From a virus: DNA of 5,241 nucleotides. A program made the position numbers and the translations under genes. Positions 324 through 5,241 of this stretch are shown here, piece after piece (position 1 is the stretch's first letter; each line of letters opens with the position of its first letter). Location: the IMG/VR virus record IMGVR_UViG_3300045988_033595, positions 1 through 5,241 of that record; one strand, 5' to 3'. The notes beneath the pieces were generated by a model. That model was not told where the DNA came from, searched no databases, and saw only the letters and a list, made by a program, of their open reading frames with translations.

Positions 324-1289
324 TTACAACTTCCTTTCGAGTGATTTTATGCGAGCCGTCAAAGCGGCCTCTTCAACCGCAAGACGGTCAGGCTCAATAA
401 GGGATGTTTGCAGGGACTTATTATGAGCATCAACCAGCGCGGCGTGCTGGCGTTTAGCCTTAATCTTAGACATCTGCTCGGGATTATCAAAATCAAAAAG
501 CCGGTCATAATACCGGGGAGGACGAAATTTCAACTGACCCTTATCGGTCGGAAGATTGATAAACTCATACTGATACAAATCGGGATGGTCAGCGTAATAC
601 TGATAAGCAATGCCGGGCTTACGAGACATCCGCACAAACTCAGGTTCAATATTAAACCGGTCATACACCTCAGCACCTTCACCAAGGGCTTTCTTCATAA
701 TATAACGAGCAGTGTAGGCGCAAGTTTCCCACGTTACGGCGCCGACCACAACATAGCCGAGACCCCAACACTTAGTAAGAGAATCACTAATGAAATAATC
801 ATAGTTTTGGGGGCTACGTTTGTAGGGTCGCAGATCGTCGAGAGTGAGTCCAAAAATAATTGCGTGATAATGAGGGCGATAAGTAGTAGACCCATACTCG
901 CCACAGGCAAAGAAGCGTAGACGCTCATAAGAATGTTCCTTTCTTAACCGTTTCATAAAAAGTTGAAAATCACGAGAACGAAGCGTTAAACCACTACGAG
1001 CCTCACCATCATCATTCTCCGAATAATACGTTACAGGCACATGCTCATCATCATAGGTCAGCGTAACGAAATAACTTGACTCATGGTACTGCAATTCAAG
1101 CATACATCGGTTCGCCCATTGGCGAGAGCGCTCAAGACGGCAACCAACACATCGACCGCAGGGAATCTTTAAGCGAGCGTTAGGCGGGTAAGATTCCCAC
1201 TCAGCAAGACCAGCAACGAATTTGATATCACGCTTACCGTTGGAATTCAATCCAGTGCTGACAGCCAACATGGGATGAAAGCAAGACAC
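324..1289 (-). CDS. VP4: Replication initiation protein VP4 (phiX174 A-like HUH rolling-circle endonuclease), 321 aa.
   Basis: The ORF-track protein has the typical N-terminus M-x-C-x-H-P and a Cys cluster (CGRCVGC). Motif I is FVTLTYDD. The HUH motif is HYHAIIF. The paired catalytic tyrosines are Y-T-A-R-Y (YxxxY followed by IMKK), as in phiX174 A. GTG start at 1289 with GAGGTG (1298..1303) 8 nt upstream. An internal ATG at 1271 is an alternative start but would remove the conserved N-terminus. Confidence 0.93.
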   Translation of the reverse strand: MSCFHPMLAVSTGLNSNGKRDIKFVAGLAEWESYPPNARLKIPCGRCVGCRLERSRQWANRCMLELQYHESSYFVTLTYDDEHVPVTYYSENDDGEARSGLTLRSRDFQLFMKRLRKEHSYERLRFFACGEYGSTTYRPHYHAIIFGLTLDDLRPYKRSPQNYDYFISDSLTKCWGLGYVVVGAVTWETCAYTARYIMKKALGEGAEVYDRFNIEPEFVRMSRKPGIAYQYYADHPDLYQYEFINLPTDKGQLKFRPPRYYDRLFDFDNPEQMSKIKAKRQHAALVDAHNKSLQTSLIEPDRLAVEEAALTARIKSLERKL

Positions 1290-1358
1290 AAAGCAAACAC
1301 CTCACTAAGGGGATGCGATATCCTCTTAATTTTTAAGTACTTTTATAACTTTATTTAT

Positions 1359-1386
1359 ATTATAGACTATTTTTATTTTATGTCAA
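1359..1386 (-). promoter_or_regulatory. Consensus sigma70-type promoter directed toward VP4.
   Basis: The minus strand reads TTGACA (1386..1381), a 16-nt spacer, then TATAAT (1364..1359). It sits in a very AT-rich tract about 70 nt upstream of the VP4 start. Both hexamers match consensus perfectly. Confidence 0.6.
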
Positions 1387-1621: not shown

Positions 1622-1655
1622 GATTTACACGAGCCTGAAACAGCGCCGCCACGAC

Positions 1656-1698
1656 AAAACAGGAAAAAGCGAGCCGGGCGCAGGGGCGCGACTCGCTT
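1656..1698 (-). terminator. Putative rho-independent terminator ending the VP2 / small-ORF transcription unit.
   Basis: The basal stem aagcgag (1667..1673) pairs with ctcgctt (1692..1698). It encloses a GC-rich imperfect upper stem (ccgggcgcaggggcgcga). On the minus strand the hairpin is followed by TTTTTCCTGTTTT. It lies 30 nt downstream of the stop at 1728. Confidence 0.55.
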
Positions 1699-1727
1699 CG
1701 CTTCCTTTATAAAAAATAATTGTTTTC

Positions 1728-1841
1728 TTAATGTCTATTAAGCCATCGAATAACAGCGATCACAAGGGCAAGAATGGGAATGCCGGGTACAAGCAAGACA
1801 ACCAGCAAAAGGAGGACAAAAATCAAACCATCATCTACCAC
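1728..1841 (-). CDS. Hypothetical 37-aa single-pass membrane peptide. An alternative ATG start at 1865 would give 45 aa.
   Basis: Hand translation from GTG (1841..1839): (M)VDDGLIFVLLLLVVLLVPGIPILALVIAVIRWLNRH, then TAA. AAAGGAGGT (1849..1857) lies 7 nt upstream of the GTG. 103 of the 114 nt lie beyond the VP2 stop, so this is free-standing coding capacity rather than only an alternate frame of VP2. It lies upstream of the terminator at 1656..1698. The N-terminus is acidic, the core is about 27 hydrophobic residues with a central P-G-I-P, and the C-terminus is basic. Confidence 0.45.
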   Translation of the reverse strand: MVDDGLIFVLLLLVVLLVPGIPILALVIAVIRWLNRH

Positions 1842-2748
1842 TACCAAAACCTCCTTTTCGACCATCAGAACCAAAACCGCCAGAACGACGAGATCGGCCA
1901 GAACGATTAGAAGACGAAAGACCGAGCTTCTGAGCAACCCAACCGGCAACACCGGTGAATTGATTATTACCATACTGATTCCGCAAATCATAATCCGTAT
2001 CAGTACCATAACGCGAAGCAGAGGACGAAGCATCAGCGCCATACTTAGATGCGGCGCGAGCCTGATCGGAAGCATAACGGGAAGCACTAGCAGCTTGAGA
2101 CGAACCAAAGATAGAAGCAGCAGCAGAACGGTCAGAACCATAACGCGAAGCCTCATAGCTACGATCAGAATGATAGCGAGAAGCAGAAGCAGACGTATCA
2201 GCACCATAACGAGAAGCGGCGGCAGAGGTATCAGCACCATAGCGCGAAGCCTCTGCAGAAATCTCAGAAACAATGCGCTCCATAGCAGTATACTTATCAG
2301 CAACAGCTTCCTGTGTCTTAGCGTTGATATTAGCGGCCTCTATTTGAGTCTGAGCGGATAGAATAGAACCAAGCAAATTAGCAATAGCGCCGTTGGCGGA
2401 AGTATCTGTATCACCTTTAGCACCTTGCGAAGTCACACCTTGAGCAGTAGCGCCGGAGCCGACAGAAGCACCATTTCCATTCATGGCAGATAACACAGGA
2501 TTAAGACCAGCAGCCATAAGGTCACGCACTTCACGCTGATGAGCCGTATTGGAAAGCATCTCCTGCCAATTACGATTTTTAGCAGCTTCATTTTGATTGA
2601 AAGCCATAGCCTTAGCATTCTGCTGTTCCTGCCATTCGCGCTGTATTTGAGCCTGTCCGGCAGACCAAGCATTATTAGCCTGAGCAACACCCTGCATATG
2701 AGCGATCTGATTCGAACCAGTATTCAAAGCCTCAGAAAAATCAGACAT
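1831..2748 (-). CDS. VP2: Minor capsid / DNA pilot protein VP2 (functional analogue of phiX174 H), 305 aa.
   Basis: The position directly after VP1 is canonical. The Q/N/A-rich N-terminal half contains the AAGLNP motif I associate with gokushovirus VP2. The tail is Gly/Arg-rich. ATG at 2748 with AAGGAG (2755..2760) 6 nt upstream. Confidence 0.85.
   Translation of the reverse strand: MSDFSEALNTGSNQIAHMQGVAQANNAWSAGQAQIQREWQEQQNAKAMAFNQNEAAKNRNWQEMLSNTAHQREVRDLMAAGLNPVLSAMNGNGASVGSGATAQGVTSQGAKGDTDTSANGAIANLLGSILSAQTQIEAANINAKTQEAVADKYTAMERIVSEISAEASRYGADTSAAASRYGADTSASASRYHSDRSYEASRYGSDRSAAASIFGSSQAASASRYASDQARAASKYGADASSSASRYGTDTDYDLRNQYGNNQFTGVAGWVAQKLGLSSSNRSGRSRRSGGFGSDGRKGGFGSGR
1990..2253 (-). 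repeat. Eight in-frame tandem copies of a 33-nt (11-aa) repeat inside VP2, covering aa 166-253.
   Basis: The units are EASRYGADTSA, AASRYGADTSA, SASRYHSDRSY, EASRYGSDRSA, AASIFGSSQAA, SASRYASDQAR, AASKYGADASS and SASRYGTDTDY. The first two units are also near-identical at the nucleotide level. Confidence 0.9.
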
Positions 2749-5153: not shown

Positions 5154-5241
5154 TGCGCAGCACCTCCGAAGCATCCGCAACGACAAACGGAACAGCCAAC
5201 ACATCACACACGCCGGAATCAGTATCAAACGAAGCCAACCG
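5143..5241 (-). CDS. VP5-like protein, C-terminal part. This is the same gene as 1..211, and 5187..5241 duplicates 1..55.
   Basis: Continuing the frame of the 211->1 ORF through the junction (position 1 = 5187) gives ...LAVPFVVADASEVLRNER, then TAA at 5145..5143. The stop lies just inside the next gene, consistent with coupled translation. Confidence 0.65.
   Translation of the reverse strand, partial: RLASFDTDSGVCDVLAVPFVVADASEVLRNER
5187..5241. repeat. Terminal direct repeat, copy B (identical to 1..55).
   Basis: Exact 55-nt identity with the window start. Confidence 0.95.

Follow-up and report, generated by a model that had tools for sequence, protein, structure and literature searches.

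A conserved micro-gene for a 37-residue membrane peptide at the end of gokushovirus VP2, with a possible role in host lysis

Gokushoviruses are among the most abundant single-stranded DNA phages of guts and oceans. A lysis gene for these phages is listed as missing in the literature (PMC7062461), which agrees with the statement in an earlier reading of the DNA studied here (the original prediction) that they have no recognised one. That DNA, the 5,241 nucleotides (nt) of IMG/VR virus record IMGVR_UViG_3300045988_033595 (hereafter the window), carries a 37-codon open reading frame (ORF) on its minus strand at the end of VP2 (1728..1841; hereafter the mini-ORF), whose product, MVDDGLIFVLLLLVVLLVPGIPILALVIAVIRWLNRH, is a small hydrophobic peptide. 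The locus raises two questions, namely whether this frame is a gene at all and, if so, whether its product could take part in host lysis. Comparison with relatives answers the first clearly; for the second, the peptide is a candidate.

The mini-ORF opens with a GTG (1841-1839) and closes with a TAA (1730-1728). VP2, the DNA pilot protein gene and the cistron directly upstream (1831..2748, minus), ends in ...GGT CGA AAA GGA GGT TTT GGT AGT GGT AGA TGA, and its codons for K-G-G (the 'GGF' tail) supply a Shine-Dalgarno (SD) site, AAAGGAGGT (1849..1857, minus). The layout is as originally described, with the SD site in the last VP2 codons (1857-1849) and the GTG at 1841 following after a 7-nt spacer (TTTGGTA); the frame then encodes (M)VDDGLIFVLLLLVVLLVPGIPILALVIAVIRWLNRH. 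The first 11 nt of the mini-ORF are shared with VP2, to which the mini-ORF stands in the +1 register, and the VP2 stop TGA (1831..1833, minus) falls inside mini-ORF codons 3-4, an arrangement that, judging by the layout, suits termination-reinitiation coupling. The predicted peptide consists of a hydrophobic run of 26 residues (L6-I31; best 15-residue Kyte-Doolittle mean 3.29) between an acidic N-terminal tail (D3 and D4, net -2) and a basic C-terminal tail (R32, R36 and H37, net +2). A GC-rich hairpin follows the stop by about 22-24 nt, rather than by the 30 nt first reported.

Taken from the window alone, the mini-ORF is not significant, as 26 % of mononucleotide shuffles of its 108-nt body stay open; the region is poor in A (17 in 114 nt). 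Such a frame could be an untranslated spacer, rich in T and poor in A, whose openness and hydrophobic reading are accidental, and the T-rich +1 frames of the Gly/Ser/Arg-rich VP2 tail do read as hydrophobic where a gene is unlikely, both in the relative L003 and in a 191-codon hydrophobic open frame of the window itself (1728-2303, minus, +1 to VP2). The latter is a by-product of composition, namely of the GGT/TCT/CGT-rich codons of VP2; GenBank record MG945407 annotates a similar ORF as a 'hypothetical protein'. What lifts the mini-ORF beyond chance is comparison, in the form of conservation, covariation of start and SD site, and frame-specific selection.

Relatives were gathered from IMG/VR contigs via VP2, from metagenome contigs via the conserved hairpin, and by protein look-up. 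They yielded 16 distinct DNA versions of the mini-ORF, each 36-37 codons long, with further members in L080, L081, L097 and P0003. Close relatives were largely free of the stops, frameshifts and losses of SD site or start that the original prediction had named as evidence to the contrary, the frame being open in 16/16 versions with SD site and start kept. In the window's sub-clade the start is a GTG in the +1 register relative to VP2. Other lineages, including L006, L008, L011, L019, L051 and L052, use an ATG or a GTG in the other VP2 register, on or beside the VP2 stop, the overlap mostly being ATGA or GTGA. Four of these (L006, L008, L011 and L052) have an in-frame stop directly preceding the start, indicating that the peptide is initiated on its own. 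An SD-like motif lies 6-13 nt before the start in 26/30 tabulated genomes, and in the window and most of these 30 the start coincides with the VP2 stop or lies a few nt from it at most, and the SD site falls in the final codons of VP2. The GGF tail that forms this site is absent from relatives without the mini-ORF, i.e. the SD site covaries with the presence of the ORF.

Selection was assessed as the ratio of non-synonymous to synonymous substitution rates (dN/dS) in two sub-clades of seven sequences each, and values of 0.31 and 0.37 were obtained in the mini-ORF frame against 1.07-3.6 in the two alternative frames. In the window's sub-clade, nucleotide diversity at the three codon positions was 0.118/0.024/0.207, and across all 16 versions position 2 was the least variable, with 0/20,000 permutations reaching the observed value. 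Residue changes within the helix mostly exchanged one hydrophobic residue for another (77 %). The near-invariant positions are V9, L12, L16-L17-V18-P19, A25, V27-I28-A29 and I31-R-W-L-N-R-H37, and the stretch 20-24 varies and contains many small residues. Within these blocks, the Pro19 codon in the mid-helix LLVP block (1785..1787, minus) encodes Pro in 16/17 family members, and the I-R-W-L-N-R-H codons at the C-terminus (1731..1751, minus), an aromatic/basic membrane-interface anchor, are near-invariant in the family. Set against a chance frame are thus the purifying selection in one frame only, the conserved start, SD site, length (36-37 codons) and motifs, and the contrast between 16/16 open versions and broken alternative frames; we consider a compositional artefact very improbable. 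The comparative sequence evidence shows 1728-1841 (minus) to be a genuine protein-coding micro-gene.

The same data bear on whether this is a gene of its own or a C-terminal extension of VP2 reached by +1 frameshifting, which had been put forward as another reading of the locus, or by read-through of the TGA. The +1 frame of the window is open for 191 codons across VP2, and the zero frame of VP2 is also open beyond its TGA, as an extension would require. Against this, the six lineages named above and others carry the frame in the other register with an ATG or GTG of its own, four of them behind an in-frame stop. Moreover, third-position diversity in VP2 (0.20-0.39) is unconstrained and flat through the last codon, indicating that nothing upstream of the GTG is dual-coding, and dN/dS in the read-through frame is 3.6. 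An extension in place of a separate gene is therefore barely credible, and the frameshift fusion to VP2 is abandoned. Other readings of the locus were rejected as well. The 45-amino-acid (aa) form from the ATG at 1865, part of the original prediction, falls together with the 191-aa ORF (1728-2303) on the in-frame stops just upstream of the conserved start in L006, L008, L011 and L052 and on the lack of constraint at VP2 synonymous sites. TGA read-through into a Cys-rich VP2 tail, WFDFCPPFAGCLACTRHSHSCPCDRCYSMA, was dismissed on account of its dN/dS (3.6), and no other in-frame TGA suggests recoding. An in-register antisense ORF (1731-1910, plus), which was the gene caller's choice in the contig L096, is broken in 6/16 versions, and the distribution of diversity over codon positions agrees with coding on the minus strand.

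The window peptide fits the pattern of its family (D3, D4, LLVP with P19, and W33-L-N-R-H), and a sister family was also found, in which a mid-helix Pro is followed 14 residues later by a Trp, as in the window, and then by [LF][NK]R[HK] (for example, MTSQSAFALLVFIVLAVLVGIPFILLCRLLWHAGSWFKRKDR). Members of the sister family occur in L084, L089, L090, KT264762 (cat) and Dulem viruses 164 and 175 (lemurs), and their C-terminal tail is longer and more basic (...WFKRKDR) than the RWLNRH of the window's family. Shorter and unrelated-looking transmembrane peptides occupy the same post-VP2 slot elsewhere, one being MDSLVLCLAMFVVAAVFYLVIRNLIR (four lineages) and others being present in L022 and L023. 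None of these post-VP2 ORFs is annotated in the GenBank records examined. Among representatives of ~15 billion predicted proteins, the mini-ORF family had three matches only, of which one is a chimeric 176-aa ORF and another was labelled an ATP-synthase c subunit by its source. The peptide returned no family match in Pfam, PHROG, NCBIfam or PADLOC (no PADLOC hit at E<=1) and no tblastn match among GenBank phages, and an exact 30-nt pattern of mini-ORF DNA had no match in IMG/VR. The mini-ORF is a new unannotated family of small phage membrane peptides, which are themselves a known kind.

When the peptide would be made depends on the organization of the genome. The window is a circular gokushovirus genome of ~5.19 kb (~5,186 nt) with identical ends (1-55 = 5187-5241; terminal redundancy), and all of its recognisable genes are on the minus strand: besides VP2, these are VP4/Rep (1289-324), a basic 37-aa ORF (321-208), a VP5-like ORF, VP3 (4972-4469) and VP1 (4479-2803). 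Upstream of VP4 lies a sigma-70-type promoter, TTGACA-16-TATAAT (1359..1386, minus), that matches the consensus at 12/12 positions, and the GC-rich hairpin GGAAGCGAAGCGAGUCGCGCCCCUGCGCCCGGCUCGCUUUUUCC with its U-run (1654..1706, minus; fold at 1706-1661) is a probable intrinsic terminator ending the transcription unit. Promoter and hairpin together delimit a genome-length unit with the mini-ORF as its last cistron. Layout and comparison hence support the earlier description of a last cistron with its own initiation, encoding a single helix between an acidic N-terminus and a basic C-terminus.

Several further observations concern these non-coding elements and the neighbouring genes. The hairpin core, GGAAGCGAAGCGAGTCGCGCCCC, is kept throughout the close relatives, whether or not they carry the mini-ORF. 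DNA conservation in the hairpin region (1654-1706, and homologous sites in L001-L059) is far above that of the flanking genes, and as a query the hairpin pulled relatives from metagenomes, together with some unrelated hits that were chance matches to GC-rich DNA; termination may not be its only function. Directly after VP1, in the VP1-VP2 interval (2769-2816, minus), stands another strong hairpin of the intrinsic-terminator type, AGTGGGGGCTGTTGCCCCCACT with a T7 run. It is overlapped by a promoter-like site (2816-2788; TTGACC-17-TATAGT with TG, 10/12 consensus positions), from which transcripts would begin within the hairpin, and the regulation of VP2 together with the mini-ORF may thus be separate. 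An Rfam scan of the whole window returned no match. Several related gokushoviruses encode a small, conserved, soluble ORF (...GDRQVLWF(K/R)D.VVM(L/I)L) directly upstream of rep (L060, 3976-4158; L093, 1869-2093; L094, 2012-2185; L101, 2425-2598); nothing like it was noticed among the ORFs of the window.

Prophage relatives add the host and the stage of expression. The 15.6-kb contig L096 contains a full-length prophage that is 95 % identical to the window, with identical mini-ORF DNA, flanked by a 19-bp direct repeat, GGATATCGCATCCCCTTAG (7606-7624 and 12795-12813), which corresponds to window positions 1305-1323. A second prophage, in L097, is ~77 % identical over the aligned segments, occupies the same kind of site (7590, 12722) and encodes an intact mini-ORF, MSSDLVMVSLLLFVLLVPVVCSVAVVIAFIRWLNRH, i.e. 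the mini-ORF is intact in two independent prophages. Full-length prophages flanked by the 19-bp core in contigs with bacterial genes indicate that the phage is temperate. The flanking host genes encode an SLH-domain protein (~1,100 aa), a LysM-GH18 protein, an MFS transporter and HSP90. In L060 (CAAGJQ010000087), a metagenome-assembled genome (MAG) of Oscillibacter, a VP4-ORF5-VP3-VP1 segment with a VP1 88 % identical lies beside a tyrosine recombinase, an insertion sequence element and a GH18 gene. The prophage flanks and this Oscillibacter relative point to a Bacillota anaerobe as the most likely host, and the strong SD sites agree with this. Because attachment takes place in the interval from the main promoter to VP4, integration cuts the main promoter off from all phage genes, and, as the mini-ORF has no promoter of its own, its expression is expected mainly from the circular, lytic form. 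This expectation is not airtight, given the weaker promoter-like site at 2816-2788, which overlaps the post-VP1 terminator.

What, then, might the peptide do? Ribosomes terminating on VP2 would reinitiate on the mini-ORF, so that the peptide would appear late, together with the structural proteins and in proportion to VP2. It would insert into the cytoplasmic membrane in an N-out/C-in orientation, as predicted by the positive-inside rule and on the model of the Pf3 coat, in the manner of small phage peptides that need no Sec machinery, and would act there in host lysis during the lytic cycle. It could do so in either of two ways. The kinked helix might bind a membrane enzyme that supplies cell-wall precursors, much as phiX174 E targets MraY and phage M Lys targets MurJ, or the peptide might act with, or tune, a two-helix protein encoded within VP4 (described below) as a small holin-like or antiholin-like partner.

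Several lines of evidence bear on such a role. The criteria used by Chamakura et al. 2020 for single-gene lysis (Sgl) candidates are at least 25 codons, an SD site and a transmembrane domain (TMD) (PMC7693330), and the mini-ORF has 37 codons, AAAGGAGGT 7 nt upstream of its start, and a TMD (Kyte-Doolittle 3.29). Scans of the six other ORFs of the window found no peptidase, muramidase or endolysin domain, and the literature holds no lysis gene for the subfamily. Finally, the succession of differing small transmembrane peptides in the post-VP2 slot appears, by analogy, to resemble the turnover of Sgl genes. On these grounds we tentatively propose a lysis-related role, as effector or modulator, which we hold to be a substantial possibility though not the probable outcome. 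The more specific proposal, that the mini-ORF encodes a homology-free lysis effector ('protein antibiotic') of temperate gut gokushoviruses infecting Gram-positive anaerobes (Oscillospiraceae-like Bacillota), alone or with the two-helix partner from VP4, is doubtful.

A number of findings weigh against the lysis effector, among them the distribution of the gene. The post-VP2 mini-ORF is missing in eight close relatives (L001, L002, L003, L020, L021, L040, L083/L085 and L086) and decayed in two, by a 1-nt deletion with frameshift in L009 (which is the L059 version, probably the same data) and by an internal deletion in L014. The three closest complete GenBank genomes (MG945333, MG945407 and MG945570; pig faeces) are without it, and in them only ~20 nt separate the end of VP2 from the conserved hairpin. 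Ten more distant GenBank gokushoviruses, sampled for spread (VP2 ~40-66 % identical), gave 0/10 with such an ORF at the VP2 stop, and universality of the mini-ORF among gokushoviruses was rejected on this result. When a wider interval was scanned in nine of the ten, one different small transmembrane ORF was found further downstream, in Dulem virus 174 (PP511563; L102, 2334-2477). This annotated 47-aa hypothetical protein, MEYLLIFLIVLVAFVFVVLPVLLFLRVWRILKYVEWLLRDELNRRGY, has an acidic N-end, a helix with a mid-Pro and a basic tail, and lies between VP2 and rep without adjoining VP2; possibly it is an analogue that has changed place. In Chp2 and phiMH2K, VP3 directly follows VP2. From its absence or decay in close relatives and the 0/10 in distant genomes, we judge the mini-ORF to be lineage-specific and dispensable over short evolutionary distances, which is not what one would expect of an essential lysis gene. 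In addition, the helical moment of conservation was not significant and no one-sided pattern pointing to a specific binding face was seen in the mini-ORF, and a conserved helical face as the sign of a specific binding partner was accordingly discarded. A TMD is also a weak predictor, as 178/293 TMD-bearing Sgl candidates were without effect in Escherichia coli (PMC7693330).

The remaining point against the effector is a rival gene, spotted while genomes lacking the mini-ORF were being checked for an equivalent elsewhere. VP4 contains, in its +1 frame, an ORF of 64 aa (734..928, minus) that encodes MSVYASLPVASMGLLLIALIITQLFLDSLSTICDPTNVAPKTMIISLVILLLSVGVSAMLWSAP, with two hydrophobic segments, and that is also present in genomes without the mini-ORF. 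It is open, with its ATG at the same codon, in 22/24 distinct VP4 genes, including those of L001, L002, L003 and L040. Synonymous diversity of VP4 is 0.12 inside the overlap versus 0.54 on each side, and third-position diversity falls to ~0.05 from codon 126 and returns to ~0.4 at codon 186, which is exactly the ORF stop. Such a profile is typical of overprinting, and the ORF is probably a gene of this type; the constraint might also come from a cis-acting DNA element. The product had no family match and only two copies in the protein database, and a positional precedent exists in the phiMH2K record, where OrfN lies inside the rep gene. As a candidate for lysis, the VP4-embedded ORF ranks no lower than the mini-ORF, and its existence lowers the probability that the mini-ORF is the sole effector.

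These findings lend themselves to the main rival explanation, in which the mini-ORF encodes a real membrane micropeptide with a non-lytic accessory role, such as superinfection exclusion, modulation of a host membrane protein, or modification of burst size or timing in the manner of the non-essential phiX174 K. Its patchy presence, with two decayed copies among close relatives, and the unrelated small peptides sharing its variable slot would be natural for an accessory gene, and the VP4-embedded ORF could carry the essential lysis function. The phage is, moreover, temperate, and the 2816-2788 site could, in theory, drive transcription of VP2 and the mini-ORF in the prophage. That site is only putative, however, with a 10/12 consensus match, and the mini-ORF stands last in the structural operon without a dedicated promoter, in a genome where integration separates the main promoter from the phage genes; nor did the peptide match membrane or exclusion families in PADLOC, PHROG or Pfam. 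A non-lytic accessory role is possible, if on the unlikely side.

The tight coupling of the gene to the VP2 stop would also be expected of a virion or entry partner of the VP2 pilot protein, for instance a membrane anchor or chaperone produced in fixed proportion to it. Presence of the mini-ORF also tracks the kind of C-terminal tail that VP2 has, as it might for such a partner, and the GGF tail is found only together with the mini-ORF. This covariation is more simply explained by use of the tail codons as the SD site, however, and close relatives with a similar N-terminal two-thirds of VP2 do without the mini-ORF. We consider a VP2 partner improbable.

Whatever the function, a guess from a single sequence has become a defined family, that is, a conserved micro-gene of 36-37 aa under selection with a recognisable motif, which is invisible to gene callers. 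With the VP4-overprinted ORF, a second candidate was found in the same genome; both are short enough for direct synthesis and testing, and the full-length prophages with an intact mini-ORF point to a Bacillota test host. Should either ORF be the lysis effector, its target could expose a new vulnerability in the cell envelope of Gram-positive anaerobes. A homology-free effector, if that is what the mini-ORF encodes, would for the first time make gokushovirus lysis accessible to genetics and might reveal a new target in the envelope. If neither is a lysis effector, the mini-ORF would still be a clean example of a missed microprotein, and would illustrate how membrane peptides can arise from T-rich alternative reading frames of tails rich in Gly and Ser.

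Among the closest known systems is protein E of phiX174 (Bullavirinae; PF04517), a lysis protein whose transmembrane P21 is functionally essential and which depends on SlyD; E blocks MraY. Both are single-pass membrane proteins of small microviruses with an acidic residue before the helix, a mid-helix Pro (P21 in E, P19 in the mini-ORF), basic residues ~12-13 positions after the Pro and the same predicted N-out/C-in topology. However, E has 91 aa and a cytoplasmic domain and is overprinted in gene D, whereas the mini-ORF peptide has 37 aa and no soluble domain and is encoded free-standing after VP2. Homology between the two finds no support: BLASTP of the mini-ORF peptide against E returned an E value of 44, and a PF04517 scan of five family peptides (E<=10) gave no hit, with E itself scoring 1.8e-22. 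On sequence grounds, the mini-ORF peptide appears to resemble E in layout but is not a member of its family. The subfamily itself offers a precedent for unassigned membrane ORFs in OrfN of Bdellovibrio phage phiMH2K, a gokushovirus ORF with one hydrophobic segment whose GenBank note reads 'similar to bacteriophage phiX174 E and K proteins'. OrfN differs in having 109 aa and in being embedded in the rep gene, for which reason it parallels the VP4-embedded ORF and not the mini-ORF, and no sequence similarity is present.

The Sgl proteins of ssRNA phages, such as the MurJ inhibitor Lys of phage M and L of MS2, are reminiscent of the mini-ORF peptide in being tiny, mostly with one TMD and without mutual homology, and phage M Lys is of about the same length (~37 aa). 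Rapid evolution and varying genome positions are further likenesses, as are the SD site, the at least 25 codons and the TMD, all of which the mini-ORF possesses. The differences are that these phages belong to another virus realm and infect Gram-negative hosts, and that Sgl function was shown by induction, whereas the mini-ORF is a candidate from sequence comparison. The holins and antiholins of dsDNA phages, including the two-component holins of Gram-positive phages, are likewise small membrane proteins made late, and a one-helix mini-ORF with a two-helix VP4 ORF would resemble such pairs. In contrast to holin systems, no endolysin domain was found in the six other ORFs of the window and no holin family was matched (Pfam, PHROG, NCBIfam); as for the charged C-terminal tail of holins, the mini-ORF peptide, with its one TMD, has a tail of only six polar residues (RWLNRH, net +2). 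A similar membrane architecture is found in the major coat protein of the inovirus Pf3, which has 44 aa with an acidic N-terminal tail, one helix and a basic ...IRWIK... C-terminus and inserts N-out/C-in in a YidC-dependent, Sec-free manner. Although the Pf3 protein is the structural coat of a filamentous phage and microvirus capsids contain no such component, it provides a good model for how the mini-ORF peptide would enter the membrane.

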